DNA from: Malacoraja senta
Taxonomy: Eukaryota
Assembly (NCBI GenBank): GCA_038087875.1
Contig: CM075989.1
Coordinates: 17,052,001 to 17,116,000, forward strand
Direction: 5' to 3'
Length of the DNA stretch: 64,000 bases
Shown in pieces: positions 5,343-29,618 of the stretch. The notes beneath the pieces are model-generated. The model was not told where the DNA came from and did no database searches. It worked only from the letters and a program-made list of their open reading frames with translations. How positions within the stretch are numbered: position 1 is the stretch's first letter; each line of letters opens with the position of its first letter. The position numbers and the translations under genes were made by a program.

Positions 5343-5540
5343 TTAAGATTTCATAGTGCAAATTGGGACCACAATGACCAAAACCACGGTGCAGACCGCT
5401 GCTACGATTAAGGCAGCAATCTTACAAATTTTTGCCCGTCTGAATTCTGCCTCTTTCCGTTTCAGCAAGGAGTCATATCCCGGAGTGTAGATATCCTCCA
5501 TCCAGTACTCTAAGTTATTAGGATTCAAAGATTCTTGATT
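5343..5540 (-). CDS. MINAR1: MINAR1 (KIAA1024/UPF0258) terminal coding exon with C-terminal transmembrane anchor
   Basis: Translates NQESLNPNNLEYWMEDIYTPGYDSLLKRKEAEFRRAKICKIAALIVAAVCTVVLVIVVPICTMKS*, nearly identical to the recalled human MINAR1 C-terminus. Acceptor ttacag| at 5541-5542, phase 0, TAA stop at 5343-5345. The N-terminal part of ORF 5343..5750 is intronic. Confidence 0.95.
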   Translation of the reverse strand, partial: NQESLNPNNLEYWMEDIYTPGYDSLLKRKEAEFRRAKICKIAALIVAAVCTVVLVIVVPICTMKS

Positions 5541-5680
5541 CTGTAAGGAGACAGAAATTTCTGTTAATGTGGTCTTTAGCTGAGTGTACAAAGTAGAGCG
5601 GATTGTCTTAAACAATAGCAACCTGATCCTACTATGTCCCAAATGTAGGTAAATGTTAATAGATTCATGCCAGTAATGAC

Positions 5681-6760: not shown

Positions 6761-7344
6761 CAGGGTATAGGATGCCTGAGCTGCAATGTAATATGGCAGA
6801 TGGGATCCCTCCTACATGGGATAATACGTGGACTTGCTCTGAGACACAGTGAGCTGCGTGATTTAATTGCGAGGGTACTTGATGGAAAAAATAAAACTGC
6901 CTGTCTTCAGTTAATACACAGACTGGAGACAATGAGGGAAGAGTTTGTGCTGTATATTGATCAGACTACAGCCAATTACCCAGAGCAGCTGAAAGTTAAC
7001 GTGCATCTCAATGGTGTCAGGGGAAGAGGATCATACAATAAAACCATCAAATGAGACATCGGAGAATACATTAGATGCAATTCACACCCACTGCACACTG
7101 CCTGGAACTGAAAGAGTTGATCATTATCTGTTCTTTACCCAGTAATCAGGGATGGAGAAATACTTTGGTATTTCCTATTAACAGTTTGGGACGGCACATT
7201 GGCGCAATGGTAGAGTTGCTGCCTTACAGCACCAGAGTCCCTGGTTCAATCCTGACTACGGGTGCTGTTTGTACAGAGTTTATATGTTCTTGGATGTGGC
7301 CAGTGAGCTTGTTTATATACTTTTATAATTTTATACACTTCTAT

Positions 7345-8436: not shown

Positions 8437-8688
8437 CAGGATTTCCAGAGCTGTTAACTCTACCTTGTCACCGGTCCTGTTGTACTCCTCAATGACCCAT
8501 GATGGCTGCGGCTGCTTCTGCTCCAGGACCTCGGTCAGCCGGAGATCCGTGTACAACGGGTTGTTCTTCATGTGAGATTTCATGGAATTGGGATACATGT
8601 GAGGGCTGAAGACCTGTTCGATTAACAGGGAATCTTTCCCGGGCTTTGACGACCGATGTGACTGTGAAATTTCGCAGCGGCGATCTCC
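8437..8688 (-). CDS. MINAR1: MINAR1 penultimate coding exon (84 codons)
   Basis: GDRRCEISQSHR...LIEQVFSPHMYPNSMKSHMKNNPLYTDLRLTE...PSWVIEEY...KVELTALEIL matches MINAR1 EQVFSPHPYPASLKAHMKSNPLYTDMRLTE. Acceptor ttttgcag| (8689-8690), donor |gtgaag (8436), phase 0/0, joins in frame with both neighbours. Confidence 0.93.
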
Positions 8689-11600
8689 CTGCAAAAGATT
8701 TGAAAGGAGTGAGACCCAATGGGAAGAACAGGAAAATGTCATCTCATTACAAGCGGCAGTAACCCAAAATGAAAAAATAAGGCATCGCCATAAGTAGTAG
8801 ATCAAAAGCACCCAAAACTTGAGGTGATCTCTGGGTTCTTTATTTGGAGAGAACCAGGTGGTTTGACACATTGCAGGACGGTGTAGCCTAGCTTGACTAA
8901 GATCTCATCAACCACCCTAATCATCCATTCTCTTCACCCACTGCACACAGTGACTCCATTGTGCACCATTGACAAAGTGTAGTGCATTTCCTTGTCTAGA
9001 ATACTCCAGCAATTATTCACAAGCCCGTAATCTCTATTACCAAGAAGAACAAGGACAACAGGTGCATGAGAATATTTTCACCAGGTTCCTCTCCAAGCCC
9101 CACACCATTCTGACTTGGAGATGTATCATTGTTCCTTCATCATCATGAGTTCCACATCTCGGAGCTCTCATTCAGACAATTCCATGGGAGACTCTTCACC
9201 AGATGGAATGCAGCGGTACAAGAAGATGATTCACCAATTTTTCCAGCATTTCTGTTTTATTTTTCCAGATTATCAGCATTATACAGTCTGCTGATTTTCA
9301 TTGTGAATGTGAGAGTTGACTTATCACAAAGGTTCTTCCTTCCAATGCTCCAAGCAGCAAATGGAGTCAATGAAAGGCAAATTTACCTGATCTGCCACAT
9401 TTCCAACCAAGTTACAACCATTGACCATTCGGGGAAGCCCCCGTTTACTTCTCCCGTGACGATTGCTCAAACCCGGATTGATGCTGGGTATTATTTATAT
9501 GTAGTATATTTACGTAAATGTAGACCGCAGCTTAATACTGATGGTATACCCGGTTAGAAACCAATATTAACAGATTGACCATTAATGGGATTGCCCTGGG
9601 AGCTCAAATAGACTTGATGGGCTGAATGCCCTCCTTCAATATCATAAAGAAGTGGGAAATGTGAGAGTAAATCAATCCAACAAGATTTAGGATATTTTCT
9701 TCAGACTTTTCTCTTACGCTGTCTATTAATCTAACAGAACTTGACAAGTGGGAACAGTCTTTGTTTAGAATCTCATTCTGATGTTTTTAGGAAAATGACG
9801 CAATCATACTGGACAGAAGATAGACACAAAGTGCTGGAGTCACTGGGATCTTCTCTGGAGAAAAAGGATGGGTGATGTTTCAGAGCAGAATCTTTCTTCA
9901 AACTGCTAAGAGCAAAGCAGTCTGGAGAAGGATTCCAACCCAAAACGTCACCCATCCTTTTTCTACAGAGATGCTGCCTGGCCCACTGAGTTACTCGAGT
10001 AACTGGGGGCTTCTCCGAATGGTCGTTCTTTGGTGTAAACCAGTATCTGCAATTCCTTCCTACACAATCTTACTGGACTGGACATTCCTTAGAGAGGAAC
10101 ACTCAGTTTGAAATCAATTGCCACTAAACTGAGGTGAAATGCACATAACTTGTACAATAGTCATAGATGGGCTTGCTGACAGTCAAGTGCATGCTATATT
10201 AATGAGAAATTTGGCATGAGCTGTGGCTCATATACTTACAAAATGTGCACTTGTGCTACTAACAACAAAAGGCAAGTCCTATGTGCTTCATTAATAAATT
10301 GGATGGCCCATATCCCACAGGCAGCTAGTCGCTGCCTTGAAGTTTAACAGCAAAAGTCTACAGGTATTTCCAAATTAATTTTATTAGCCTCAAGATTGGC
10401 TTTTTTGCTTCCGGATATGAATCTGTCTCTAAAGGATTATAAACGAGTGCAGAGCTCACATGAATAGTAATTTCTCAATCATAAACAATTTTGTTAGTTC
10501 ATAACATTTCCATATTTCTTCTTAATCTAAGTGGACAGCGTGAGGAATCATTTTCTATTGACCATGACAAACTAAGCGACACAGTCAGGACAGTTGTATC
10601 TTATAGTCCTGTTCGCTATTCACCAGCTTTTACTGAGAGTGGGCCTGATAGTAATTGAACACGGCAGAAGTTAAAAGAAAATGTGCTAAGTTATTCCAAA
10701 CTATTTTCATTGGTAGAAAGGTCAATAATAGAGGGTTCCAGTTCTCGGATAACATGAACCAGAGAGTGAAGAAGATAATTTCCTTACAGCACGGAAGACA
10801 ACATTCGCACAATATACAATGGTTTTGAAATAGTGATGGGCAACCTGGAAAAAACCTTCCTGGAGTCACATCATAATGCGTCCTTCCTTCAAGGAATCCA
10901 GGCAGGAAACGCAACCGCAGATAAAACATCTCCAAGCAGGACATTGTCAAAGTCGTACCATCATCTGTCGCAGATGGACGGATGCCAACAGCATCATGTT
11001 ATTATCTGGAATGCATTGCCGAAAAGGCTGCAAGTTGGCAGAGAATTGCCAGAGCAATGGGAAGACAGCAGGGGAGTGGGACAAGTTAGGCAGCTCTTAG
11101 ACTGAGTCAGTGCCGGCACTTGGAAAATGCATCACTTCACGTATTTCTGCCTTAAATTAAAACTGCCATCTGTCTTCCATTTCACCAGGGTGTTTATGTT
11201 CTCCTTAAACCTGTTCCTGTTTTCATCACTCTGTGCATCATTGTGTCATCTTCAATTTTTCAATGTTGCCCCTTGTATCCTCATCCAGGCCATTAATATA
11301 GATGAGAAGATCAGTGATGTGAACACCAATCCATGTATCTCCCTGCATTCAGATAAACAGCTGCTTACCACCTCTCTGTATTCTGATGATACCACATCCA
11401 CAGGGCCCCTTTCAATTCATCAGCTCCAATTTTGCTGACTTCATCAAAAGTCTTACTTAAGTTAATCCACACACAAAGAAAATCACATGAACCTTATCAA
11501 CTCCCTCCATTAATTCCTCAAGTAACTCACTCAGCTTTGTCAGATGTAATTTGTGTTCAATAAAACTCTGCATGCCGTCAGTTATTCCATGCTTCTAAAT

Positions 11601-12649
11601 CGCAATTAATTTAGTTCCAGGTTATAAACTCTAAAATTTTCCCCAATCCTTAAAGATTAGATTTACCTTATTTGTCTTTTTTAGACGGATTTGTAATATT
11701 TGCAAGATCCCTGTTTATACAGGACTACGTCACTGCAGCTAGAAACTCTTCTGTCTCCCCGTGCCTCCCTCTGTTAACTTTAATAATCCTGTCCTGACTG
11801 TGTAACATTCTTTCCTGAAGGACAGCCTACCTTTCAAAAACGTTATGTTTTGTTCAAGATTTTAGCATCTGCAGTTCCTTGTATCACCATTTTACTGCTG
11901 CACTGTGAAATCTCCTCAAAGTATGACTTCCTCTGATGAATGTGAGTCCCTTTCTTACTGATACCCCTCTGTGTTTATTTACTTATCACTTGCCACAGAT
12001 AGGTATATAATCCATCACCTAGATAATACATTCTAATCTATATCAATCTATATTATATCTATATACAATGTAGATTGTGTATAACTATATTATATCTATA
12101 TCTATGTCAGATTATAATATATAGAATATAATATAATCCCACGCCCACCTCTCATTTCCAGCTTTCTATCTCCTAATAGAATCAGTCTAAAGGGTCCTGA
12201 CCCAAAACATCGTATGTCCATTACCTCCACACATGCTGCTTGATCTGCTGAGTTTCTCCAGCATTTGTGTTTTGCTACCTTTTAAAATGTTTCCTTTTTT
12301 TATATCATTTCCTTCCCAACATGTCTTTTTTCATGTGACATAAAAAAAGAAAGAAATATATGCAGTTGTTGGCCATTCAGATCCTTAAGCCTGCCGGATA
12401 TTTGATAAGATCAGGGCTGTTCCACTACAGTTACTTTAGCCTATGATGTGGAAAATGAGGAACATTGGCCAGATATGTACTGTTCGTGTAAAGCGGGAGA
12501 GATCAACTCCAACTAATTACTGCCCTGTTAATCCACTCTCGTTCATCAGCAAAGTGATGGAAGATGATGCCAGAAATACTAATACATGGGACTTACTCAC
12601 CATTAACCTGCTCACTGATGCACAGTTTAGGTTTCAGCAGAACCAGTGG

Positions 12650-12960
12650 GAGAGTCTAGGCCTAGATGCATAGCCTCAGAATTAAAGGATGTTCTTTTAG
12701 GAATGGGATGAGGAGACATTTCTTTTGTCAGAGGGTGGTGAATCTGTGGAATTCTTTGCCACAGAAGCCTGTGGAGGCCAAGTCAGTGGATATTTTTAAG
12801 GCAGAGGTAGATAGATTCTTGATTACTACAGGTGTTAGAGATTATGGGGAGAAGGCAGGAGAATGGGGTTAGGAGGGAGAGATAGATCAGCCTTGATTGA
12901 ATGGCGGAGTAGACTTGATGGGCCGATTGGCCTAATTCTACTCCTATTCCTAATGACCTT
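12650..12960 (+). mobile_element. CR1 LINE 3' end
   Basis: HSLRIKG...RRHFFCQRVVNLWNSLPQ...IFKAEVDRFL. Related 3' ends at 1030-1210(-), 18620-18930(-), 30365-30560(+), 48570-48722(-) and 62690-62830(+). Confidence 0.8.
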
Positions 12961-13279
12961 CTGATCTAATCACCGGGCACTAGATTTTGGTCTCAAAACC
13001 GCTGAATTCTGGAGGTGAGGTGAGAGTGACTGCCTTTGGCCTCAGGACAGTATTGGGCTTAGTGTGCATCGACACCCTGGTAAAACAAAAGACTATGGAC
13101 ATCAAGGGGAAAACACACCTGGAGTCATATCTCACATAAAGGAAGATGGTTCAGGATGATAGTCAAGGTTCTAGACCAAGCTCCAATAGAGGACCTTGTC
13201 AAATACTTTACTCAAGCCCAATGAGGACAACATTCCCTGACCTAGTCTCAATCATCTTCATTACCACCTCAAAGAACTT

Positions 13280-13740
13280 GATCAAATTTTGAGACAGGAC
13301 TTCGCCCACACAAATCTATGCTGATTATCCCTAATATGTCCATGCTTTTCCTCACGCAAAAATACCCTGTCTCTAAAAGTCATCTTCCATAATTTCCCTA
13401 CCACTGATGTATGGCTCACCAGCCTATAATTTCCTAGATTATCCCTGTTGTGCCTCTTAAACAAATGAAAATCTTATCTATTCTCCAGTGTTCTCGAACC
13501 TTGCCTGTGGTTGAAAAGGATGCAATGATCTTTGTTAAGGCCACAGCTAATCTTTCCTTGCCTCCCTCAGTATCCTGGGATAAATCCAAGCAGGCCCTGG
13601 AAACCTATTCACCTTAATTGTTTTGAAGATGCTCAACACCTCCCCCTCCTTAATATTGACATACCCTAGAATATCAACATACCCCTTCCTGATCTTACCG
13701 TTATCTAAGTCCTCAACATTTGTTGGAGATAGTCTTTTCC
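13280..13740 (-). mobile_element. CR1 LINE fragment
   Basis: PGPAWIYPRILRE and DNLGNYRLVSHTSVVGKL...DNQHRFV motifs (ORF2, upstream of RT core). Confidence 0.75.
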
Positions 13741-13929
13741 ACCTGGCACATGTATGGCCCTTACCAGCCCATGTCTGAATGTTGACTGGGTCATGCCGCA
13801 TACAGCATTGGCTGCTTCATTTACTGCAGATTAATGAATGGAAATGAACACAATGCAAACATCAATGAACATCACCAGTTCAGACTTCATGATGCAAAGA
13901 AGATGGTTGTGCATGGAGACATTGTTCTG

Positions 13930-14720
13930 ACGAACCCCTGCATTGATGTGCTGTGACTGGAATAAATGTAACCTGGACAATTGTACGGTGATGCATTCTG
14001 GAAAGTTTAATGCAAGAGGAAAGTATTCAGCAAATGACAGAACCCTTCGAAGCATTGATATACGAAGGGATCTTGGGGTGCAGATCCATAGCTCCCTGAA
14101 AGTGGCAATGCAAATGGACATGCTGGTAAAGAAGGTGTATGGCATGCTTGGCTTTGTAGGTGGGCCCATTGGGTTAGCAACTCATGTTGCAGCTGTATAA
14201 AAATTGGGTTAGGATACATTTGAAGCCGATTTGGAAGAATTCAAAGGCTTTGGAAATGGTGCCATTTTTTTTCACCAGAGATTGGAGTTGCCTTGGAGTC
14301 GTATTATCTATAAGGAGGTTGGACAAACTTGGATTATTTTCTCTAAAGCATTGGAGACTGAGAGGTGGCCTTATAGAAGTATATAAAATTATGAGACGTG
14401 TAGATAGATAGTTAGAGTCTTTCTTCTCGGCTGGAAATGTCAAATATTTGAAGGCACAGGTTTAAGATGGGAGGGGGGGGGAAGTTTAAAGAAGATTTAT
14501 GAGGTCTGTTTTTTACAATGCAAGTGGTAGGTGTCTGGAGCAAGCTGCTGCGGAGGTGATGGAAGTAGATACGGTGGAAATGTTTACCATTTTGACAGAA
14601 GAGGCAGGGAATAGAAGGATATGGACCATGTGTAGACAGACGGAATCAGTTAGATTGGTATCATGGTTGGCACAGGTGGGCCTAATGGCCTGTTCCTTAC
14701 TGTACTGCTCTATGTCCTAT
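13930..14720 (+). mobile_element. CR1 LINE 3' fragment
   Basis: RDLGVQIHSSLKVA, RLDKLGLFSLKHWRLRGGLIEVYKIMR, then a CR1/HER1-type 3' tail. Confidence 0.8.
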
Positions 14721-14859
14721 ATTTTAAAGTTTCTATTGTCTTCAGGGAGTGATGTCTTTGGTGCTGAAAGTCTTTTCATGCCTCAAGCACTTAGACAAAT
14801 GAACTATTTCTCGAAATTGAGAGCTGGGAATAGCGTATTTGCAAGAGGCAGGGTGGGAG

Positions 14860-15380
14860 TCCACATGCGAACTGGAGAAACAACAACAAATGTAGTCCAT
14901 TCGGGTAGCCTACAACCTAATAGTTTGAACATTGCATTCTCCAATTTTAGGTAACTAACCTACAAACCCTCTTTTTGTTTTCCTCCCCACCCCCTCTTCC
15001 CTATACCCAATCTGGATTCACAACCATTTCTCCTCTTCCTCATCCCCTTCCGCCTCTACTGCTTCCTGTGGCTCACAATTCTCACCTCTTCCATTCTTAT
15101 CTCACGCCTTTTGTCTTTTCGTCTTTGGCATTTGTCCAACCGCCTGCCTATTAACCTCCCCACTCACCTATATCCGCCTGTCATATAGTGAGTAGGGCAC
15201 CTATATGACAGGTGCCCTACTCACCTATAGGCTTTGTCTTGCCCCCCCCCTTCCAGGTTTCTCTACGCCTCACCACAATCAGTCTGAAGAAGGATCCTGA
15301 CCCAAAACGTCACCTGTCCATGTTCTCCAGAGATGCTGCCTGACCCATTGAGTTACTCCAGCATTTTGTATCTATCTTTG
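14860..15380 (+). mobile_element. Decayed Penelope-like element 3' end
   Basis: ...GSLQPNSLNIAFSNFR* (GIY-YIG C-terminus), then a pyrimidine-rich UTR and CTGAAGAAGGATCCTGACCCAAAACGTC near 15284. Confidence 0.7.
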
Positions 15381-17074
15381 ATGAAACTGAAAACAGGTTG
15401 GTCCCCGTCCCCATATCCAAAAGAATTTCACAAAACTAAATCCCAGGATGACAGGCTAAATCAGTTGTGTTCATATTCTTTGATCGGAAGAATGAGAGAT
15501 TTCCACATTGAAGCATATAAGACCTGGTAGGGCAGAAGTCAAAGTGACACAACCGATGTTTTCATGAGTCAGAGATTCTCAAACTAGGCGAGATAGCTTC
15601 AAAATAAGAGGCCAATCATTTAAAACGGCGGTATGTTGAAGCAGTTTGCCTCGTGCAACATCTGATGTTTAGGGTTCCTCAGGAATAAATGAAGGATCCA
15701 TTCATGTTCTTGCTCTGGTTCAACCAGGAAGACTGGGGAGGAAGAATGAACTGGGGTCACTTTTACCTGTAGGTTCAGGGTTAAAGTCTGGCCTCACATG
15801 AGTAGTGCTGACACAGACAGAAAAGGCTGGAATTATTTATATAGGTACATGGATAGGACAGGTTTAGAGAGATATGGGCCAAAGGCATGCAGGTGGGACT
15901 AGTGCAGACGGGACATGTTGGTCGGCGTGGACAAGTTGGGCCGAAGGGCCTGTTTCCATGGTGTATGATTCTATGATTCTATGACTATTTCATTCTCATG
16001 AAAGGTCATTGATCTGAAACACAATGCTGTTCCTTTCTCTACAGCCGCTGTTGGAGCTCTTAACGTGCCAAGCTTTTCCTGGATTCTTTCAAAGACTTCC
16101 CTTTACGGCCCCAAGTCCCTTGTAACAATAAAAGTACTGTGAGCAGATCTCGGTTCAATTGGGTCCGTAACTCCCATGAAAATTTTCAGAACGCAGCAAT
16201 GGAATTTGGTTTAGGTAAACAAACTAACGTGGAGAAATGGCGTGTTTAGTCAGTGCGTTGCAACTGGTAAAGTGGTGCTTCAAGGACAATAAGTTAATTT
16301 AGTTTTAATTCCAGTGCAACATTATTAATAATTCATGAGAGGCTGAGCCGTTATTTCACTCCGCATCAGCTAATCAGCAGCCGTCGCTTAATTTGAAATC
16401 TTGAGTTTGTTTATGCCGTGATGCCACCCACAGCGGGCTCTTAATTGAGATTAACCTTGTCCAACCAAAACAGTGTGGCAATCAATGCTCTCAGAATTAC
16501 AGAATGATTGCACAATAGAAACAGGCTATTCAGTCCCACCAGTCCCACCACATTGCTGTTTATCCACTATGAGTCAGTATCCTAATCCCATGCTTCCATC
16601 CTCCTCTCACAGACCATTATTACACTCTTTCTATCTAATCAATACTCAATTGCTGACATGCCCAAGAAAGACGTGCAGGTTTGTAGTTTAATTAAGTTGA
16701 GTTTAAGACGTCTGTGAATTGCCCCTAGTGCATAGGGAGTGGAAGAGTAAGTGGGATAACATGGAACTCGTGTGAACCGGTGGTCAATAGTTGCCATGGC
16801 TACATGGACCAAATAATCTGTTTCCATGCTGTATCTCTAAACTAGATTTCTGGATTGAAACACACTGATCACAAGTTCCAGTTCATTACACATCACTCCT
16901 GTAACCCACCCCTTCACTTCCAGCACTGCATCATCAACAGTTGTAATCCTGTTCCTGCACCAGCTTGCACTGGGCAGCATCATTCCCCATGCAACCGTCT
17001 TTATGGAATCCAGTCTGGGTTGTCCCATCAGCAACAATTCTTGGTCACTCTTGGGACACGTTGGTCGTCCTATT

Positions 17075-17406
17075 CAGGCACGGAAATCACTGTCAAACAT
17101 GCGGGGGACAAAATTTCTTGGTGGCCACACGCGAGCATGCGCACACTCGCGCACACACGCAAGGCTTCGGCCGTGGGTTTGAATCGGCCCGTTCACGGGG
17201 TCTTTCATCGGTCGACGGGGGCTTCAACAACGGGAGCCTTGATCACCTCGATGCAGCAGTTTGATTTTAAGCCATGCTGGGCGCTGAAAGGTCCCGCGAA
17301 TGGGCCGATTCAGCCCTTAGAAAGTGGCTGATAAAGTCCGGATGACAAAATATGGGGGGGGGAGACATGTCCCCGCCTGTCCCCACCCCCAGGATTTCCG
17401 CCCCTG
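17075..17406. mobile_element. Non-autonomous hAT element, 332 bp
   Basis: TIRs CAGGCACGGAAATC / CAGGGGCGGAAATC. Perfect 8-bp TSD GTCCTATT (17067-17074, 17407-17414). CpG-rich interior. Confidence 0.88.
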
Positions 17407-18290
17407 GTCCTATTGCAGCACTGGAGGTGACGCCACTCAGCAAAGTCCCTTCGTTTATTTGTATCCTTGTGCACCACAGCTCTCCAACATCCTGTTCTCT
17501 CACTCTTCCACAGAGTTCCAATCCCACCCCCCCCCCCCAACTCTATCCCACACCCCTGTGTACTTCCATATCTATGTTACCCCCTGATCTTACATTTGCT
17601 ACCACCTGACCTTACAATACCTTTAGGTTCAGGGGCCGACCACCGCCCTTCCCCAAGCATCACCACAAGCACCTAATGTCCCAACCACCGTCAGTCACTG
17701 GAGTAAAAACCCACAGATGCAAGAAATCTGAAACAAAACAGAAAATGCCAGGGAGAAGCTGCACGTCGGGCAGCATCTGCATAAAGAGAAGCAGACAGTT
17801 TGAAGCTCTGTTTCTTTCTCCGCAGATGTTATCTGACCTGCTAAGTATTCCTAGTGTTTATTTTAAACCTTCCTGTATTGACCCTTCATAATCTTAACAT
17901 CTCTGTACCAAAGCACTCCTTAATCTCTCCAATGCTACCAAGGATATTGTTGCAGAACCATGCATGCAATGCCCAGCACACTTGCAATAGAGCGCTGCAG
18001 CACCATGCTTGCATTTGCCCACCCGCTTTGCTGCACAAGTGGTTTACTGAACATGGTTTAGTATCAAACTGAGAATCTGTTGTTTTCACTTACACCACTG
18101 TGATGAACTGAAATGAACAATCAGCTTTAATAAAAATGTTGTGTTCGAGCACATCTGACTGATGTTCCAGGAGGTTTAAACCTTACCGCTAGACAGAGTT
18201 TCAAGCACAGACAAGGCCCTTCAGCGTTACTGGCCCTGGTCAGGGTTGGAACAAAGCTCTTCCTATCTTATCCTGTATCTCACTATTCCT

Positions 18291-18511
18291 TGTGTATGAA
18301 GGGACAGCGGATGCTGGTTTAAATCGAAGATAGATACAAAATGCTGGACTAACTCAGCGGGACAGGCAGCATCTCTGGAAAGCAGGAATGGTTGACGTTA
18401 CGGGTCGAGACCCTTCTTCAGACTGAGGAAGGTTCTCAACCCGAAACGTCACCCATTCCTTCTCTCCAGAGATGCTGCCTGTTCCGCTGAGTTACTCCAG
18501 CATTTTGTGTC
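18291..18511. mobile_element. Palindromic PLE-derived element with back-to-back hammerhead motifs
   Basis: Inverted arms of about 90 bp around 18420. Flanking duplication TATCTCACTATT (18276-18287, 18512-18523). Confidence 0.8.
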
Positions 18512-18998
18512 TATCTCACTATTACTTACACCATGTCGGTGTATATATATATAAATGCAAATTGCCACCACGTCCATCTCCCTGTCACAGCTGAAAACCT
18601 TCTTGCTGGCCTTATGATAAATTCATAAGTTCTAGGAGCAGAATAAGGAAATTCAGCCCATCAAGTCTACTCTGCCATTCAATCATGGCTGATCTATCTT
18701 TCCCTCTCAACCCCTTTCTCCTGCCTTCACCCCATAACCCCTGAGACCCTTACTAATCAAGAATATGTCAATCTCCACCTTAAAAAATATCCATTGACTT
18801 GGCCTCCTGTGGCAAATAATTCCACCGATTCACCACCCTCTGACTAAAGAAATTCCTCCTCATCTCCTTTCTAAAGGTACATCATTTTATTCTGAGGCTA
18901 TGGCCTCTGGTCCTCGACTCTCCCACTAGTGAGAAGTCATAGCTTAGTTTGATTTTTTTTTAACAGTGAAAGCCAAAGGAGCTTGCCAGGTTTGAGTT

Positions 18999-19168
18999 CT
19001 TCTTCTTGTCTAGTCCACACACAAGATTAGAAGTTGCTCAGCCAGAGCTGAACACGCTTCTCAGCATCCGCATACTATGATGTCTGTCTTGCACTTCTTG
19101 TGCTTCTTGTGTGTGGTGGTGGAAAGATTGGTGGAAACGGCCACGACATGAACGCTCTTTCCTTGACC
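18999..19168 (-). mobile_element. 5'-truncated retroposon with (GAA)n tail
   Basis: 13-bp TSD CCAGGTTTGAGTT (18986-18998, 19169-19181). Minus-strand 3' end ...ctagacaagaagaagaa. Confidence 0.7.
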
Positions 19169-20047
19169 CCAGGTTTGAGTTAATTCAAAGGGTCAACCTA
19201 TTCTCCATCAAATCATGATTTAGCATTGCATGATCTCCAAAATCAACTTTAGTGACAAGATATTTGGAATAAATTACCCTGTCGATTTTTGTTTTGTATT
19301 CCTCCAAATCTCCTTTAATTCTGAGGCTGTGACCTCTGGTCCTAGACTCTCCCACTAGTGCAAACATCCTCTCCACATCCACTCTATCCAGGCTCTATCC
19401 AGGGTGCATTACATGGGTTGGAAAACTTTAGAGGGAAATGGGGAAAACAAACTAAAATAGTATTAGCTTATGTCGGCACCTTTGTCGGCATAGACAAGTT
19501 GGGCCGAAGGGCCTGTTTCCCTGCAGTATAACTGTGTGTCTCTAACTACACTGGAGATAATGCAGCAGACATGAGGACCAAATGACAATGTTTTGCTGGT
19601 GCCTGAAGAGTTATGGGCAATAAAAGGGACTTGAGTTGGCTGCAAATTGGCACTGGTGATCCGTGCCAATAGTAAGCAACTATAAATGGATATCCAAAGC
19701 AAGAAACACTTCAATGACCTTGCAAGATTAGCCAATAAAAATGAAAGTGCTGAGAATCTGCTGGGAACATGATTCATTCCACTCTATCAAAGAGCAAGCA
19801 GTGTAAAAGCAGAAATGAAGGTAGTAATCACCGGACGGAGGATAGACAGTACGTCCGCAAGAGTCCCCATCACTCTTTGTACTGAGATACTTCCAGTAAA
19901 GTTGGAGCAAACCTGAAGAGTCTGCTGCATTATCTGCACCTCATCGTCCCAACCATGTGCCACTGGAGTTCCCCTAGTCATAACTTCCCATAATTTCCTA
20001 GGATATAATGTGACATTAAAACTCCTTCCACATCTACGTTGAGAACA

Positions 20048-20462
20048 TCCACACTAATACTCATACCCAGACCCACTCACACATCCATAATCACACAACC
20101 ACACCAACACACACCCACACCAATACCCACACTCAACCACTCTTTCTCCCCACCAACAGATGCATGCTTACATACACTCACTCACACCCACACCAATACA
20201 CATCCGCACACATCCACTCACACGCAGTCACAACCACTGCCCACTCACACTCACTCACACCCATGCCAACATGCACACCCACACACACTAACCTACACCC
20301 GCACTGATACGTATTCACACCCCCATACCCACATACACACAGTTGCACTCACACCCATATACACACTCATACCTGCACAGACGCCCATATTCACACCTCA
20401 CACTAACACACTAACACACACACACACCTACACCTCTACACTCATACCCATACTCACTCACG
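20048..20462. repeat. Degenerate (CA)-rich low-complexity repeat
   Basis: cacacccacac/actcacac units; explains the His/Thr/Pro ORF 20039..20473. Confidence 0.9.
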
Positions 20463-21049
20463 GCACATTTTGATGTGTACCTGAATGCATGACATTGAAA
20501 ACTGTGGACTGAGTACAGGAAAATATGATTAGTGTAGATAGGTACTTGATGTAGAACATGGAAGCCTTGGGCATGTTTTCTTGTTGATTGACTCTATAAC
20601 TCTAATATAAAGAATGAGATTGAGTTTGCAAGTGGTGTAGTTCATTGTAAAACTGAGATGTTAAATCTAATCCAAGGCAACCTTGAAGGCATGACAGGAC
20701 ACGCTGTAGTTGATTGAGAGAACATATTGATAGTGGACAGGTACTGATTAGTATTTAAAGAGTTCTAGATCCAGGGGCAGTTTCTTCCAAGCTGTTATCA
20801 GGCAACTGAACCATCCTATCAACAACTAAAGAGCGATTCTGAGCTACTATCTATCTTTATTCCCTTTATTCATTATTCCCTTTATCTTGTATCTGTACAT
20901 TGCGGATAGCTCGATTGTAATCATGTGTAGTGTTTCCACTGACTGGTTAGCATGCAATAAAATCTTTTCACTGTACATGTGACAATAAAGTAAACTAAAT
21001 TTATAAACTAATGTATAAGTTACAAAAAAAATTAAAGGCACAAAACTCC

Positions 21050-21920
21050 AAACAGGACAAATAGTTCACTGTGGCTGGCAGGAAAAAATAAACATAAAAT
21101 TAAATGCAAGGGGAGGCTTATAATGTTGCCACCAGTAGCAATAGGCCAGAGGATTTGCAATATTTAAGAACTCAGAAAGGCAAGATAGATGTGAAACTGG
21201 ACTGGCAAGGAAGATAAAAATGGACTGAAAGGGCTTTCATAGACGTGTAGAAAGGAAAAGACTAGTGAAGACAAGAGACAGAAATAGGTGAATGTATAAT
21301 GGGGGATAAAGAAATAATGGTGGAATTAAGCAATTACTTTGCATCTGCCTTCGTAGATGAAGACACACAAATTTGCCAGATATACTAGAGAACCAAGAAT
21401 GTAGCGAGTACTGAAGACACAAAGTATGAGGTGAGGAGACGTACTGGAAGAGTGTAGAAACAAAGAAATGCCGATGTTGGCTTATAAGCAAAGACACAAA
21501 GTGCTGGAGTAACTCAACGGGTCAGACAACATCCCTGGAGAATGTGGTTAGGTGATGCTTTGGGTCGGAACCCTACTTCAGACTGATTGTCAATCTAAGG
21601 AAGGGTCCCGACCTGTAACGTCACAAATCCATGTTCTCCAGGGATGATGCCTAACCCGCTGAGTTACTCCAGCACTTTGTGTCTTGTTTAGTAGCACTGG
21701 AAGAGCTAGTGAGCTTGAAAGCTAATAATCCCAAAGATCCAATGATATACATCCCAGAGTTTTGAAGGAGGTGGCTTTAACGAGACAGTATGCTCTGATT
21801 ATCAGCTTCCAAAGATCTATAGTGATTGGAATTATTCCTGTGAATTAGCGGGTAACAAATTAGGTCCCAAAGTGTTCGGTAGGAGGGAGATTAACAAATA
21901 GGGAACCCGTTGGCCTAATT
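21050..21920 (+). mobile_element. Decayed CR1 ORF2 fragment (interrupted by PLE palindrome)
   Basis: Purine-rich CR1-like sequence (..ttaagcaattactttgcatctgccttc.., ..atacatcccagagttttgaaggaggtggct..), homologous to 59230-59920. Confidence 0.6.
21453..21695. mobile_element. Palindromic PLE-derived element inserted in CR1
   Basis: Inverted arms (gacacaaagtgctggagtaactca... / ...tgagttactccagcactttgtgtc). Flanking duplication ACTGGAAGAG (21443-21452, 21696-21705). Confidence 0.75.
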
Positions 21921-22719
21921 TTAGTAGCAGATGTAGCAGGATGGCAGAGCCTTATTCTGATCTGCTGGTAGGGGATTGCTTAGCATATATTGCATGCTAT
22001 TTTGGTTGTTTATCCGTCTGTATTGCAACCTCATAGAAGAGGTAACACATTTTTAGATGTGGCTGATATTGCTCCCCAAATATCCTCTGCACTCCCAATG
22101 GAACCAGGGCTAATCCCCAGGCTTGATCGCAATGATAGAGTGAACAATGATTCAGGCTGAGACCACAGAGTGTGGTGATGTACATATCTGCTGTGCTGAT
22201 CTTCCACAGTGCTTTGTGACTGCCTAGAGTTGAGTTGTCCCTTGGGCACTCCAACACTGCTACCAGAGGTAATTATAACAGAGAGATTGGAGAGCATGAG
22301 GTTAAATCGTTTATGCCTTGCATTGGTTCATTCAACACCTACTGCTATAATGCAAGCCTTTCTAACATTCTTTAAAGTTGCCAGATGATTACAGTGGCGT
22401 AGCTGCCTCACAGCACCAGAGATCCGCCTTCAATCCTGACCTCGGGTCCTGACCTCCCATCATAGGGACTTTACACATTTTCCCTGTGATGCGTGGGTTT
22501 CCTTCGGGTGCTCCGATTCCCACTCACATCCCAAAGACGCGCGGGTTTGTTAGTTAATTGGTCTTTGTAAAAAGAAAAATGCCCCTAATGTGTCGGGAGT
22601 GGATAAAAAAGTAGAATAACATAGAACTAGTGTGAATGGGTGATCAATGCTCGGCTTGGACTCAGTGGGCTGAAGAGCCTGTTTCCATGCTGTATCTCTA
22701 ATCAAGAATTAAAACATGA

Positions 22720-24500
22720 CCAGGATTGGGAATTAAATGTTTCATAATGCATAAGGAGGTTGGGAATCAGTGGTAGTAAAATTTGAGATAAAGACAGTGA
22801 AAAGAAAAATCTTGGCTCAGAAAATCGAGATAAATTAGTTTGGGTGAAGCTAAGGAATGGCTTCTAAGGAGTAGAGTAACAATATGTAGCAGAGTATAAT
22901 CAGGAAATTGAGTAGCAGATAACAAAGGTGATGCAATGGTCATGGAGGACATTAATCTACACAAATCTGTGCATCCAAATTAGCAGCAACGGGTGTGAAG
23001 AACAAATTCATGAAGTATTTAAGAAGGAACTGCAGATGCTGGAAAATCAAAGGTAGACAAAAGTGCTGGAGAAACTCAGCGGGCGCGGCAGCATCTATGG
23101 AGCGAAGGAAATATGCAATGTTTCGGGCCGAAACCCTTCTTCAGACTGATGTAGGATGGGGGGGGGGGGGGGGGGCGGGGAGAAGAAAGGAGAAAGGAAG
23201 AGGAGGAGCCAGAGGGCTGAGGGAGAGCTGAGAAGGGGAGGAAACAGCAAGGGCTAAAGGAAATTGGAGAAGTCAATGTTCATGCCGCTAGGGTGCAGGC
23301 TGCCCAAGCGGAATATGAGGTGCTGCTCCTCCAATTTCCGGTGGTGCTCACTCTGGCCATGGAGGAGGCCCAGGACAGAAAGGTTGGATTCAGAATGGGC
23401 AGGGGGGTTGAAATGCTGAGCCACCGGGAGATGAGGTTGGTTAATGCGGACCGAGCGGAGGTGTTCGGCGATTCATGAAGTATGTATGAGATGATTTTCA
23501 AGATCAATATCCTAAGGAATCAATGACAGATCAGACTATTTTTGATTCACTTCTGTGCACTGAGAAATGATTAATTATAATCTGCTAGCTAGGGGGCCTT
23601 TCAGAATGACTGATCATAATATCATGGAAAATTGCAAGTAATTTAGTTCAAAAGGTCTTAAATCTAATCAGAGTGAACTCTGGAGGTGTGAGTCATGAGT
23701 TGGCTGTGGGGGACTGGGAATCTGCATTGAAAAGTATAATCACAAACAAGCAGTGGCTAACATTTAAAGCAATTAAAGCATCAATGTACCATACCCCAGC
23801 TGGAAGAGTGGTCAAACCATGGCTAACAAGAGAATGTAGAGAAAGGGTTAACCTGAGGAAAAATGCTTTACATGTTGCCAAAAAGAGAAATGAGCCTGAA
23901 GATTGAAAAAAAAAATCAGAATTCTACAATAAATTGAGAAATTGATTAGTAAAAAAAGAAACCAGAAGATGAGAGTAATCTGGTGAAAAAAAGATTGTAA
24001 AAGCTTTCATTTACATGTACAGAGCAATGATTTGCAAAAGGTAATATGAGTCACGGTAACTAAAAGATATTAGCGCTGGTACATAAAGGAGTGGAGAAAC
24101 GCATGAGACCAAAAGCTGATAGACCCTCAAGACCTGATCATTTGCGTCCCGCAAGTTTTTGAAAGATGCGGCAATGGGGATAATGGATACATTGGTTGTC
24201 ATCTTTTAAGATTCCAGCGATGCTTGAACAGTTCCCACAGATTGAAAATAAATATAACTGCCTCATCAAGGGGAGGTAAGACAGAAATCAGGAAGCTGCA
24301 GTGCATTAATCATAGGGAAACGTTGGAATCAGTTATTAAGGAAATGTCAGCCAGGTATTTAAGAGATAATAATAAGGTTGGCCTGAGTCAACAAAGATTT
24401 ATGACAGGTATATCACGCATGGCAAGTCTGTTAGCGTTTTCTGAAATTGTAATTAATAGGATTGGTAAGGGAAATCACTGCATGTGGTGCATTTGGACTT
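22720..24500 (+). mobile_element. Decayed CR1 ORF2 (endonuclease to RT), interrupted by a PLE
   Basis: gtcatggaggacattaat (GDFN-like), tgactgatcataat (SDH-like), KPWLT, and QQRFMTG.SR motifs. Confidence 0.6.
23019..23470 (-). mobile_element. 5'-truncated Penelope-like element: GIY-YIG endonuclease C-terminus plus 3' region with hammerhead motif
   Basis: Open frame not in the ORF track: AEHLRSVRINQPHLPVAQHFNPPAHSESNLSVLGLLHGQSEHHRKLEEQHLIFRLGSLHPSGMNIDFSNFL* (stop 23254-23256). Hammerhead-like core at 23117-23144. 13-bp TSD ATTCATGAAGTAT (23006-23018, 23471-23483). Inserted in a CR1 remnant. Confidence 0.88.
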
Positions 24501-25747
24501 GCAGTTGTTGCTGCCTGGTTTCATGTCAAATTCCCATCCTGATAAACGTCAGTACTTGCTGAGTTACTTCACCCTGCATGATATTAGAAGAGTGACTAAA
24601 TATACTGGACATAACAAAGATTATGTCTGAAAGAGATTCCCATATCCTGAGAATGTATATATGTTAAAATCTAAATTCTGTCATTCACTGTGATCAGGTA
24701 AGAACCATATCTGGCCACTATGTCCAAACAGGAAAACTGATTTCAACATTTGAATATAACATCAGTATTTGCTAGCCCCAGATATTCACCACTGCAAAAC
24801 TGTTTTGCCATTCCATGTCATAGATGATCTGCACATTAACCTGTTCAGTGCCACCCATGAGTATACTCGGGTCATGGTCAATAATGAAAAACAAACTTGG
24901 CAGTGAACAGGTTCATTCCATCTATTTGCCTGTGCTCCTTATTTCCACTGCCCTCACCCATTCTCACACTGAAAATGTGTCCAAGGTTTACAGAGATTGT
25001 GCTCCACATTTAAATTACCCTCGGTTTGAAAGCAACTTAACGGTAATCTGTCATTGTGTTAAAGAGAGAGACAAAGTGCTGGAGTAACTCAGCGGGTCAG
25101 GCAGCTTCTCTGGAGAAAATGGATGGATGATGTTTCAGGTTGAGACTCTTCTTCGGACTATTGAGTTTATTTGCATCTACCCTGTTAAATTCCTTTATTC
25201 TTTAAGGTAATCCAATTAAATAACACCTCTGCCATATAAACTCAATGAACAAAACACAGCCTTATAGTATAACTCGCAAATCTTTTGCATCATGGGGTGA
25301 ATACCTCAAATAACATTACTTTCTTCTACCACTGAATTCCCAAAACATTCACAATTTTAGAGGCAGCACTATTTAGAGAGATGTTTAAGCAGGATATTTA
25401 TATCAGCATTGCCACATACAAAAGTAAGGTAGAAAGTGTGTGTTCGCAACTATCAAAAACTCTCACTTTCTGAATCATTCACTCTTTCTTTAACACTGGG
25501 CTGGAATCTGCCGGAACTCTCACCAATTTTATAGAGTGAAAACACAACACTCCTCGTCTACTGATACCGTGGCTATAGAACATACAGCAACAGTAGCGAC
25601 CCACGTGACATTGCAGGTGATATTATTATTCTTATTTCTCTCGGTGACAGAGAAAAATAACAGCAAAAATATCACCCCCCAGCTCTCCCTCTAAGGCATG
25701 AGTCAGCCTGACTTGGATGGGAGTCCCTGTTCCTTTATAGCAGACGC

Positions 25748-25924
25748 CAGGCCCTCTCATAGATGAACTGAGGCCCAGGCCAATTTCAAATTTAGAGGCC
25801 CCCAAACCAAGATCAAGCAGAGGCCCCTCAATTTTAGAGGCCCGCAAATCAAGATCCATTTGAAGCAGACGCATGAGGCCCATGCCAAATGGCACTCGTT
25901 GCCCCCCCTCTCTGACAGGGCCTG
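25748..25924. mobile_element. hAT MITE, 177 bp
   Basis: TIRs CAGGCCCTCTCA / CAGGCCCTGTCA. 8-bp TSD GCAGACGC (25740-25747, 25925-25932). Repeated internal GAGGCCC motifs. Confidence 0.85.
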
Positions 25925-27462
25925 GCAGACGCAAACCTATTGAACACTAGGCTAGGTGCACGGTGCCAATTGGGCAACTCTCACTTTGATTTTTTATGTT
26001 TCCTTAATGTTCGCCATTATGTTGACTCCACTCCAACAACTTTCGCAAGGATTCACAGTTTTCTTATTGATCACTCCTGTGACGGTTCCCTGGATAAACA
26101 CTGACTCTGTATCGCACTCATTATCACATCTTCTTCAATCTCCCACTGCTCAAACTGAAGACTGGAGTCAGGGTATGAGTTGAAGTATTTTGGGAAGAGA
26201 AAACTGTACCATTGGTCTTTTTCAGCTGTAAGTATTCCTACTGCAACGGGAGCACAGCTCTGATCACATACTTGGGCAGTGATCAACTTGGTGCAAGTTT
26301 CAAATAGATATCTCAACTGTAGTTGATAATCTGGAAAGTGGATGTAACGTTCGGTTTGTCCAGGTCTATTTCTGCTGATTCTGCAGAATGTATCCACTGG
26401 ATTCAATCTCCAGATGGGGTCACTTACCAGGGCACAAAGTGCTGGAGTAACGCAGCGGGCCAGGCATCATCCCTGGAGAACGTGGGACAAGTGATGTTTC
26501 AGGTCAGGACCCTTCTTCAGACCTGACTCGAAATGTCACCTGTCCATGTTCTCCAGGGATGCTGCCTGTCCTGCTGAGTTACTCCTGCACTTTGTGTTCT
26601 TTTGTGCAAATCAACATCTGCCGTTCTTTGTTTCTACACGAGGCCTCTTGCTCCTGGTGCACCCCAAGTCTCTGACAGGCTCCAGGGACATTTAGCTATT
26701 GACAACTACCACTACTGGCCCTGCTGTTAACCAATGTGCAGTGATGCCCGGTGATGCCAATATTGGTAGAGACTTGGTGTGAATGGCAGACATTGTGCCA
26801 AAGATGAGCTCATGTAGGGGGGGGGGGTTGTACGAGGTGTGGTCTCAGCACAGAAGCTGGACTCATAGCACTAGATTTACAATTACACATGTTTTGGTAT
26901 TGCTCCGTATAAGAGTGCCCTCTACCTTGCTGTCCTTTGCAAGCTTTTGCTAATATTTGAACTCATCACCAACCACCCCAACAACACTTTGTAGCGATTG
27001 CCCATTAACTTTTACAGAGTTTGGTCAGAGGACTGAGAAACTTGCACCCACCTTTGGCTCGGTGCCTGGACAATGGGAGTGTTACTAAAGACAAACACAC
27101 ACTAACCATGGCCAAGGCCATGCCTTCTAGAGATGCTGCCTGCCCCCTGAGTCGGGGCAGAACAAAGGAGGACACGGGTGGGGGAGCGCTGTGAGGGTAG
27201 ACAAAGTAGTGGTGGTGGGGGTGGGGACAAAGAGGGACCTGGCGTGGATACTTTATAACTTGTGCCCTTTATGTGCGGACTCTTTGCATACCTTGGGTAT
27301 GCCAAACAAAGAATTCCACTGTGGCTTGTCACATGTGACAATAAAGTATTCATTCATTCACTCTGTGTTCCACACACTAAACATTTCCAGACAATTCTGA
27401 ACCGTCTTGCCCGACTAGTCGCTCATGCAGCGGGACGGGTGCAGCGGAAGCGGTGCAAATAC

Positions 27463-29418
27463 CTCTCTGTGCTTGTGTTGCCAGTCCTTACTGTCGGCAG
27501 TGTCCTGGCGCTTGGCGTGGCCCGGCTCGCCAGCGCAACCCAGCGCTCGCCAGTCCCGGGGCGAGTTGGCAATGCTGGCGATTTTGGACTCGGTGGCGCT
27601 GTTCTCCCGGTGAGGGACTTGGACGATCTCCGGACGAACAAACTTTTCCGCAGGGCTTTGACGCGGAGACTGTCCGCGTTGCTGTCTGGCGAGACTCGCT
27701 CTGCGGGCGGCTCCTGGATCTTCTGGTCCAAGTGGTTGAGTTTGGCCAGGACCTGTGCTATCTCGTCCCTGACCCCGGACAGGCCCTCCAGCTTCTTCTC
27801 CATCTCGCCCACCCTCAGCACCAGCTTGCACACGCTGGCCTTCAGCTCATCGTCCGCGGCCTGGCTCTGGGCCGAGTCGGTCTGGGCTGAGCTGGCTTTA
27901 GCCGGGGTCCTCTCGGACTGCCGCCCTCCGCCTTGGGGAGCCGCGACAGCGAGCCGCTGCTGTTGTAACACGACTGCATCAGCCCCGTCGACCCGCTCAA
28001 GCTCATGTCGTCCAGAAACCTGAAGATATCGCTGATGTCGTCGCTGAGTCCCTCCGACTCCTCGTCCGACTGCCGGACGGGAGCCTTGTCTCTGGGTTTA
28101 GGACGGGGGCAGCGGCCGGGCCCCTGAGGCTGAGCCCGGCCCCGGGCCGCCTGCCCCGTCTGGGTGGCCACACTGGCCGTCTGCTCCAGGCTGGACGGCT
28201 TGTAGCCTTTCTCCTTCAGCTTCCTGGGGTTGGCGAGGCCAGAGGGGTCGGCGGCGGGCGGCGGGAAGCGCACGGTCTCCTCCGCCTGCTGGAAGTAGCT
28301 TTTAGCCCTGTCCATGGTGCTGATGGCCTCTGCCGCCGCCGCCGCTTGCCTCTGGCGCGCCTCGGCCACCAGATTCTCCTTGGTCGTGCCCTGATACTGA
28401 TGACCTTGGCGCTTGTCCTCGCTGAAATACTTCTCCCCGTCCTCCGCTTGCTCCGCGTTCAGGCTCCAGCTCTTCAGCAGCCAAGGAGGCGGCTTGGTCT
28501 GTTTGCCCAGGTTGCGGGGCTCCTGAGAGATGGTGCTTGGGCCAAAGTAGGTGGAACCCTGCAGATCATCCAAACTTTCGTGCTTGACGTACCTTTTCTC
28601 GTGGCTACTGGACGGGATGGTATCACAGTAGGGATTGTTGTAGGGCATCTCAAAGCTGTTACTGAAAAGGTGGAGAAGCGAGAGGAGTGGTTCTGGATGT
28701 TTGGCTCCTGGTCCTCATCTTCTGACTCCTTGTCCATGGACACCAACTTGCCCACGCAGGGCAGCATGTCCTCGAGTTCGCTGTTGAAAACGTTGCTCGC
28801 CTCCCCACACGGGCTGATGGTCAACGCCTCGTCGCTGAATCAAACGCCCCATTCCTGTCGGTTTTCCTGGTGGGGGAATCTTGGTCGGAGTTGGAATCCT
28901 GCCCGGGGTCCATGGGGAAATAGGTGGACTGCATCACGCAGTCCTGGGGGTCGATCCCGTTAAAGGTAGGGAAGCCTGCAGCCTGTCGAGCGAGGTGGTC
29001 CTGCCGTTATGCTCCGGCGTCCCCTCATTCCTGACCCCCAAGAAGAAGTTGGGGTCGGAGGAGCACATGAAGCGCTGGCTGTCCTTGCAGTCGGACGCCG
29101 GGGAACTGCTGGGGCGCCTGGAGGCTGCGGGCTCGCCGGCGCCCGGGTCGTGGGCCGCAGGCGTACACGGACGAGCGCTGCCGGCAGATCTCAGTGTCTG
29201 AGCGGCACGACTCAAAGGATTCGTTCTTCCTCACCTTGTGCGGGTGCCGGTGGGGCAGCCTCTCCTTCGCCACCCCCGCCGTTCATCTGGATCAGGTTGA
29301 ACCATGGTCACGATGTCGGCCGCGACCATGATCTTCTTGGACTGTGTGTTCTCCACGTTGCAGCGCAGTTTCTCCTTGAAGAGAGTGGCCGGGAAATTGG
29401 GGTCCAGGCAGGCGGTGT
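27463..29418 (-). CDS. MINAR1: MINAR1 large coding exon; 5' end in assembly gap; about 8 apparent frameshifts in this sequence
   Basis: MINAR1 motifs in collinear order across changing frames: TACLDPNFPATLFKEK, KKIMVAADIVT, FNLIQMNGG, ESFESCRSDTEIC, DCKD..PNFFLGV, SLDRLQA, MQSTYFPM, NSFEMPYN, KHESLDDLQGSTYFGP, KSWSLN, SDDISDIFRFLDDMS, ELKASVCKLVLRVGE, SLRVKALRKSLF, ENSATESKIASIANSPRDWR, KDWQHKHRE. Donor GAG|gtattt at 27462. Confidence 0.9.
28304..28324 (-). promoter_or_regulatory. Candidate RE1/NRSE (REST-binding) element inside MINAR1 coding exon
   Basis: Minus strand ATCAGCACCATGGACAGGGCT versus consensus TTCAGCACCA(C/T)GGACAGCGCC. Both half-sites are intact with the canonical 2-bp spacer. 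Confidence 0.55.
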
Positions 29419-29618
29419 NNNNNNNNNNNNNNNNNNNNNNNNNNNNNNNNNNNNNNNNNNNNNNNNNNNNNNNNNNNNNNNNNNNNNNNNNNNNNNNNNN
29501 NNNNNNNNNNNNNNNNNNNNNNNNNNNNNNNNNNNNNNNNNNNNNNNNNNNNNNNNNNNNNNNNNNNNNNNNNNNNNNNNNNNNNNNNNNNNNNNNNNNN
29601 NNNNNNNNNNNNNNNNNN
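29419..29618. other. Assembly gap (200 N); true size unknown
   Basis: Run of exactly 200 N. It interrupts MINAR1 about 50 codons from the expected start. Confidence 0.99.

Follow-up and report, generated by a model that had tools for sequence, protein, structure and literature searches.

Short hairpin inserts in a skate genome as probable Penelope-like element insertions reduced to their inverted ends

Insertions of Penelope-like elements (PLEs) have been described as carrying an inverted copy of the terminal repeat, target-site duplications of 8-10 bp, a one-sided tail and palindromes at the junction (PMC3846280; PMC8557442). The tail is given as 31 bp, on one of the inverted repeats (PMC3846280), or as 30-40 bp, often at a single end (PMC8557442), and how inverted ends and one-sided tails arise is described in the literature as an unsettled question (PMC8557442, PMC11167929). 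For the anole PLE studied in vitro, both target strands are cut and extended, a dimer is predicted, and two internal start sites of reverse transcription (RT) bound the tail; hairpin products are not described in the sections of that report cited here (PMC11167929). Terminal repeats of metazoan PLEs also harbor minimal hammerhead (min-HHR) motifs, which did not cleave as single motifs and of which pairs 100-700 bp apart on opposite strands are already on record; no cartilaginous fish is named for them in the Results or Discussion of that study (PMC4209133). Non-LTR retrozymes, which are short and PLE-derived, consist of units repeated in tandem on one strand, carry two or more hammerheads, and self-cleave and circularise (PMC7229834; 10.64898/2026.07.22.740005). 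Our literature search, which lay outside Repbase, Dfam and subscription journals, found no paper devoted to PLE hairpin stubs in cartilaginous fishes.

The window, by which we mean the whole 64,000-nucleotide stretch of the Malacoraja senta genome analyzed here, contains six short hairpin inserts, referred to below by a position in the window (Table 1). An initial annotation had pointed to six such hairpins, and a scan of the 64-kb window for inverted repeats of at least 30 bases recovered every one of them at, or within a few bases of, the place given, as I1-I4, I6 and I7 among 13 pairs; the arms pair over 53-96 nt with 76-89% complementarity. The fold of the focal hairpin, 18276, is predicted at -153 kcal/mol (z = -21), and 0 of 200 shuffled sequences folded equally well. 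A BLAST search of the window with the 18276 element yields about 28 loci of one family, the majority of them (about 20) single arms. Unrelated inverted repeats lie at 17180-17312 and 25616-25676 (I11, I13).

The hairpins are asymmetric, as one arm is about 35 bases longer in every case. A PLE tail of about 35 bp is found on exactly one arm in 6/6 hairpins, and in 7/7 when the wider pair 31056-31352 is counted. In an alignment of 29 arms, the ends fall at two points separated by about 35 bases, a short one at about +90 to +97 and a long one at about +130 from the first base of the hammerhead core. Among single arms with a readable end, 6 of 17 are tailed, and untailed single copies stop at the pre-tail site as well, with no partner arm. 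Were arms tailed independently at the rate seen in single arms, six one-tailed hairpins would be expected with a chance of about 1 in 100. These observations come from six to seven hairpins examined base by base, with a junction census that covers the window and a crude contig comparison.

Target-site duplications are present in four of the six hairpins, as judged against 2979 random flank pairs. They span 15/16 bases at 18276 (p 0.0003), 13/14 at 9815 (p 0.0013), 10 at 21453 (p 0.002) and 14, without mismatch, at 47970 (p 0.0003). Three duplications of 10-14 bp had been reported in the initial annotation, and these stand (p 0.0003-0.002), with that of 18276 corrected to 16 bp with one mismatch; the one at 9815 is an addition to the list. 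The same flank test found none at 2168, 26430 or the wider pair 31056. Among 14 single copies tested, the duplication is clear in 23020, 50332 and 53799 and weak in 37980 (p 0.013). With lengths of 10, 14, 14 and 16 bp in the hairpins, duplication length is not fixed, unlike that of MITEs. Five bases of microhomology are seen at the short end of 18276.

Table 1. Coordinates of the hairpin inserts, related PLE copies and the host intron within the window
Feature	Positions	Strand	Details
Left target-site duplication, focal hairpin	18276-18291	.	16 bp, one mismatch to right copy; empirical p 0.0003
Tailed arm, focal hairpin	18292-18426	-	PLE end, from central palindrome through minimal hammerhead to tail end
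PLE tail, about 35 bp, tailed arm only	18292-18326	-	Tail as described in parts of PMC3846280, PMC8557442 and PMC11167929
Minimal hammerhead motif, tailed arm	18394-18421	-	GAAA box mutated to GUAA
Central 9-base palindrome, TCAG-N-CTGA	18418-18426	.	Focal hairpin; common to both arms
Short (untailed) arm, focal hairpin	18423-18516	+	Final 5 bases overlap right duplication
Minimal hammerhead motif, short arm	18423-18450	+	Core boxes intact; stem II disturbed (2 bp from base)
Right target-site duplication, focal hairpin	18512-18527	.	From flank test
Hairpin 2168, subfamily A	2168-2390	.	Tailed arm left; centre about 7 bases shorter than that of 18276; duplication not found
Hairpin 9815, subfamily B	9815-10064	.	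Tailed arm right; 12 unrelated central bases separate full arms; 14-bp duplication, one mismatch (9801-9814 / 10065-10078)
Hairpin 21453, subfamily C	21453-21695	.	Tailed arm left; arms abut, with 3-4 additional upstream bases; 10-bp duplication
Hairpin 26430, subfamily C	26430-26639	.	Tailed arm right, cut about 11 bases into core; duplication not found; short arm with intact core
Hairpin 47970, subfamily C	47970-48189	.	Tailed arm right; centre either an off-centre join or an overlap bearing two mismatches; 14-bp duplication; arms 70% identical, the most decayed of the six
Wider head-to-head pair (I5)	31056-31352	.	Short arm about 30 bases further upstream, unrelated spacer, deeply cut tailed arm
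5'-truncated PLE copy (23020)	23021-23472	-	C-terminal 72 codons of GIY-YIG endonuclease (23254-23472), stop, about 100 pyrimidine-rich bases, hammerhead arm, tail; 15/16-bp duplication
Copy with last endonuclease codons (15279)	14868-15382	+	Codons upstream of an untailed arm; subfamily C
MINAR1 intron	8692-27443	-	18.8 kb; contains hairpins 9815, 18276, 21453 and 26430

In layout, these inserts match published PLE insertions stripped to their ends. As in the inverted-pLTR insertions reported for Adineta Pen2a and Pen3a (PMC3846280; scheme in PMC8557442), terminal copies stand head to head, a palindrome or overlap marks the junction, a tail of 30-40 bp is found at one end, and a duplication of 8-16 bp is present; the skate halves differ in being cut to 95-135 bases, with no open reading frame (ORF) and almost no upstream repeat, in starting near one fixed point, and in occurring at about six per 64 kb. 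Their cores share with the published min-HHR (PMC4209133) the order of CUGANGA, one unpaired base, a stem II closed by G-C and GAAA-C-G-UH, with no stem III, but the skate cores abut, have a stem I of about 2 bp by inspection, and are decayed in nearly all hairpin copies. The Poseidon element PAc of Anolis carolinensis, as reported, likewise has AT-rich targets and two end points that bound a 30-40-base tail, with a hammerhead some 100-135 bases upstream of them, whereas its ORF starts inside the hammerhead, the skate arm has no open frame by inspection, and homologues of the skate family carry a cysteine linker typical of Neptune/Nematis (PMC11167929). Resemblance to non-LTR retrozymes, as those reports define them, lies in small size, lack of coding capacity, a hammerhead, PLE derivation and duplications longer than 4 bp, but the skate hairpins are inverted pairs with dead cores (PMC7229834; 10.64898/2026.07.22.740005).

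Judging from its sequence context, the arm is almost certainly the end of an endonuclease-bearing PLE, because the same arm follows the C-terminus of a GIY-YIG endonuclease at 23254-23472, and the PLE 3'-end origin first proposed is borne out by this attachment. The 71-residue endonuclease piece of copy 23020 gives no Pfam match by itself; it has four homologues among 22 candidates, all batoid gene models with 61-77% identity, and the three that were scanned have a GIY-YIG motif (E 0.001-0.008, below the Pfam cut-off) ahead of the matching region. Searching the window with one homologue, P0004, by tblastn found the endonuclease end only and no RT remnant of the hairpin PLE family; on inspection, the N-terminal part of P0004 is RT-thumb-like. 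A Cys-x4-Cys-x2-Cys linker is present in two homologues, P0002 and P0004, and the window fragment ends before the linker. A CX2-5CxxC zinc-finger linker between RT and endonuclease is reported to mark Neptune/Nematis (PMC8557442), which suggests, as judged by the homologues, that the source PLE was Neptune-type. Three of the homologous models (P0001, P0002 and P0003) are skate gene models that end in a fragment of the hairpin-PLE endonuclease, one of them named neuromedin-U receptor 1; these endings reflect either exonisation of a PLE end or annotation error. Some older arms or terminal repeats of the hairpin PLE family have themselves been hit by younger arms (57890-57990, 46104-46190, 40740-40790 and 2168), as would be expected if PLE endonucleases cut their own repeats.

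Arms share an inner boundary at the 5' edge of the hammerhead. Relative to the first base of the core, all 12 hairpin arms begin at about -9 to +12, and several single arms with no upstream repeat begin at -4 to +1 (4407, 25062, 53799, 55283 and 57890, with 46104 placed by eye). In the eight upstream-extended copies, the boundary is an AG that follows a pyrimidine tract and precedes the CUGA of the hammerhead; pyrimidine content over the 30 bases before the AG averages 0.79 against a background of 0.48, and reaches at least 0.75 in 5/8 copies against 2% of the background. The resemblance to a 3' splice site is no more than suggestive, given copies that are related and a repeat that is pyrimidine-rich throughout. 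The acceptor-like bases also form a short TCAG/CTGA palindrome. At 14950, in copy 15279, and in the homologues P0003 and P0004, the last codon of the endonuclease ORF encodes Arg and, with the stop after it, can be read as a splice donor (AG/GTAA in copy 15279); copy 23020 lacks such an end. With a donor-like ORF end and an acceptor-like boundary, the terminal repeat could be an intron, and no spliced-looking copy was found in the window. A match to YYANWYY, which we take to be the initiator consensus, occurs in 7/8 upstream-extended copies, at the boundary in six, and is kept as a lead only, because an AG acceptor beside CUGA yields it anyway. In Penelope of D. virilis, an intron is reported to have its 3' end at the 5' end of hammerhead helix I (PMC4209133), and the start site is placed 46 bases ahead of a 75-base intron (PMC2377424).

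By eye, the arms fall into three subfamilies, A (2168 and 18276), B (9815) and C (21453, 26430 and 47970), each with ordinary upstream-extended copies as well (30628 in A; 3830 and 8232 in B; 15279 in C), and both arms of any hairpin come from one subfamily. Mean identity is 0.79 between partner arms, 0.70 among tailed arms, 0.77 among short arms and 0.73 between tailed and short arms of different elements, and only 2 of 720 arm pairings score as high as the true one; arms therefore group by element and subfamily, not by side. This grouping rests on the pairing test, the arm tree being poorly resolved (1 starred branch of 25). Partners are no closer than the subfamily background, with the partner ranking first of 27 for just 2 of 12 arms, and they have 8 derived bases in common versus about 6 expected, which argues against homogenisation or co-evolution.

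The six hairpins have six different centres (Table 1). At 18276, the arms overlap on the 9-base palindrome, the middle base of which comes from the strand of the tailed arm, as is possibly also the case at 2168 and 47970. Extra centre sequence is carried by 9815, 21453 and 31056, which are thus not derivable by deletion from an overlap-type master. Hairpin centres are deletion-prone, and the three C centres, as well as 2168 and 18276, could descend from one junction each. We regard formation de novo at integration, rather than copying from a hairpin master, as quite likely, and we assign a probability of roughly 0.7 to the overall reading that each hairpin is a minimal PLE insertion made anew at integration. 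Of the two origins offered in the initial annotation, recurrent products of PLE inverted-end formation are the one favored by these centres, with the qualification that deletions there could mimic such diversity.

Contigs from four (X1-X4) of 24 listed runs were aligned to 17870-18612 at 80% likeness; X1, with 0.81 of the sequence words, may come from the source of the window itself. They gave 241,000-310,000 records per run, a volume at which not all joints were counted; contig depth, which is no measure of copy number, was not used. From the unique left flank, an X2 contig runs 36 bases into the tail of the 18276 element and an X3 contig 30 bases, one short of the length that the comparison required, and X3 and X4 contigs seem to extend about 25 bases into the right arm. 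The left junction is thus common to X2, and nearly to X3, so the 18276 insertion predates divergence from at least one relative. No empty orthologous site was seen among the best 15 of 1850 joints, and gaps in cover near the element in X1, X2 and X4 prove nothing about such a site. In each of the four runs, contigs of other loci cross the centre of 18276 with hardly a gap or none, so this junction recurs, which fits either a master or repeated use of a built-in palindrome. Central junctions had been proposed as a means of recognizing a propagating family, and none is shared among the few in the window, where all six differ; the recurrence of the 18276-type centre in the contigs is to be set beside this.

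The contigs also bear on where arms begin and how they are joined. Position 18423, the core start, is among the six best-supported loose-end places in 4/4 runs (917-1346 contigs, with heterogeneous upstream sequence); the upstream consensus there is just three bases and the count depends on how alignments stop, making it a hint rather than a measure. The best-supported joints run from 18424-18426 to 18516 (104, 125, 105 and 100 contigs in X1-X4, three rows summed) and link the short end to the start of an arm in the same direction, as in head-to-tail dimers of a unit of about 100 bases. Such a dimer, which was not found in the window, would have both of its minimal hammerheads on the same strand and so come closer to a retrozyme than the hairpins do. 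Other joints, which link 18422-18426 to 18463-18490, have the appearance of asymmetric hairpins; they were discounted, since most come with no intervening sequence given and they lie beside private mutations of 18276. Exact-pattern scans returned no match in viral contigs and none in metagenome contigs with two patterns.

Formation of a hairpin at integration could proceed as follows. A PLE protein, predicted to be a dimer, would nick both target strands about 10-16 bp apart, and each 3'-OH would prime reverse transcription at one of two internal start sites, at the tail end or just before the tail. Both cDNAs would halt near one boundary, 95-135 bases along, at the TCAG/CUGA point, and their two 3' ends would be joined by pairing of 1-9 bases or by end joining. 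The palindrome would permit such pairing and would give exactly the 18276 centre, and 9815 would represent end joining with filler. Fill-in or repair would then produce a hairpin with a duplication of 10-16 bases, after which the arms would decay independently, their hammerheads now dead. In L1 twin priming, too, two target nicks prime two cDNAs on the element RNA, and a microhomology join leads to an inversion; there, the second primer anneals internally to give a non-overlapping inversion, whereas the skate halves both copy the same stretch. That each hairpin has exactly one tail agrees with the pair of RT start sites reported in vitro (PMC11167929) and points to priming from both nicked strands, a particular on which we judge the odds to be even. 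It is possible, and we suggest it tentatively, that the hairpin is the full footprint of one PLE cycle, in which a dimer would prime both nicks and use two start sites to make short run-off cDNAs to a fixed boundary (a 3' splice site or the 5' end of the RNA), with full-length copies needing a template jump past that boundary.

A variant within de novo formation, which we consider somewhat unlikely, involves self-priming by fold-back, in which cDNA started at the tail end would reach the palindrome, fold back and copy itself, with the endonuclease cutting the hairpin intermediate at the pre-tail site. For Adineta PLEs, the published interpretation invokes self-priming at junction palindromes (PMC3846280), the tail has been ascribed to endonuclease resolution (PMC8557442), and the middle base of the overlap-type 18276 centre does match the tailed arm. 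However, fold-back fits poorly with unrelated spacers, of 12 bases in 9815 and long in 31056, and with a short arm that reaches further in than its supposed tailed template in 26430 and 2168, and the partnerless untailed copies that stop at the pre-tail site are as expected of an RT start site (PMC11167929). The constant size and one-tail layout of the hairpins would also follow from a few non-autonomous hairpin masters, at least one per subfamily, transcribed and retrotransposed by PLE machinery, with junctions later altered by deletion. Non-autonomous PLE derivatives are reported to exist (PMC8557442), the recurrence of the 18276-type centre in other contigs and the 240,000-310,000 contig records per run on the 18276 element are compatible with copying, and the three C centres could derive from one like that of 21453. 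A hairpin master is nevertheless disfavored, and we think it unlikely: at least three masters of identical design would be needed, tailed arms resemble one another less than their own partners, the extra centre sequence noted above is no deletion product, and the far arm stops at the site where ordinary single copies stop. Nor is there the excess of A>G or T>C that might result from editing of a duplex template; non-CpG rates are 4.8% and 2.2% in hairpin arms and 3.8% and 3.7% in single arms, with no editing imprint seen in the DNA.

Two further readings concern what the hairpins do and what moved them. Four hairpins in one MINAR1 intron, modeled as pre-mRNA duplexes of 70-95 bp at -90 to -156 kcal/mol, could be a selected ADAR or Dicer substrate, or paired hammerheads could self-cleave and circularise in the manner of a retrozyme, a retrozyme-like family and an ADAR or small-RNA substrate having been suggested at the outset; two orphan single copies and three others do keep an intact core. 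Core and stem II are intact, however, in just 1 of 12 hairpin arms (26430-left) versus 5 of 17 other arms (6/29 overall), so that the early claim of a hammerhead-like core on each strand holds loosely and fails for 2168-left and 26430-right, which lack most of it. Each strand would offer one core, buried in the duplex, with no same-strand tandem, and minimal hammerheads are reported to need a same-strand partner (PMC4209133). Opening the core from the duplex is predicted to cost 11-27 kcal/mol on the nine strands where it was correctly located, the minus strand of 47970 having been dropped for matching the tail and two strands having no core within 4 substitutions. The lack of co-evolution between arms and the absence of any Rfam match at gathering score also speak against function, which we judge very improbable; incidental editing of intronic duplexes is likely and would not show function. 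Least of all do we credit a MITE moved by a DNA transposase. The hairpins are short, non-coding, internally inverted and abundant, and debris of a hAT-type transposase lies at 42036-43622 (minus strand, broken; Spin-doc zinc finger, E 4e-06, just under the cut-off). Their terminal 15 bases nonetheless match at only 6-9/15, compared to 15/15 in the TTAA-flanked MITE family of the window, their duplications vary between 10 and 16 bp, and their arm is a PLE end. With neither terminal inverted repeats nor duplications of constant length, MITE identity is refuted, and the suggestion that the hairpins were retrotransposed is upheld. The MITE family itself (31750-31996, 62293-62462 and 63479-63732) has perfect 15-base terminal inverted repeats and TTAA/TTTA flanks, and its copy 62293 sits inside a PLE arm, at the arm's TTAA.

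The intronic position foreseen for some copies is real for the four hairpins listed with the intron in Table 1. MINAR1, on the minus strand, was recognized by the Pfam MINAR1_C domain, with best named homologues from batoids, and has exons at 27444-29416 (running into a gap), 8464-8691 and 5346-5552; its first 50 or so residues were not located in the window. Hairpin 2168 lies 3 kb downstream of the MINAR1 stop, and 47970 lies upstream of the gene. The gap, of 200 bases at 29419-29618, falls in the large MINAR1 exon. Other features of the window are a 310-codon open frame at 32557-33489 (plus strand) similar to the C-terminus of an ORF2 of L1/Tx1 type (zf-RVT, E 1e-04, below the cut-off) and a repeat family of about 300 bases, presumably a tRNA-derived SINE by its appearance, at 408-729, 7193-7290, 22391-22715, 34959-35255, 41151-41467 and 45072-45347, with up to 11 self-matches.

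The hairpins are old and inactive; they are not MITEs, not retrozymes and probably not a propagating family, and for host biology they are ordinary, being decayed ends of retroelements. Elements of this kind are easily misannotated as MITEs, and they seed introns with long duplexes. Their value lies in the data that they offer on an open question, how PLEs insert, as the stubs strip an insertion down to its inverted ends and one-sided tail. The stubs are very abundant, so that tabulating their junctions across one assembled skate genome could tell two-nick priming, fold-back and copying of a master apart. If the hairpin is indeed the full footprint of a PLE cycle, then batoid genomes would hold some 100,000 natural records of it, extrapolating from six per 64 kb, and such records would settle the origin of PLE inverted ends, tails and pseudo-LTRs, with the head-to-tail unit of about 100 bases offering a route from a PLE end to a retrozyme.
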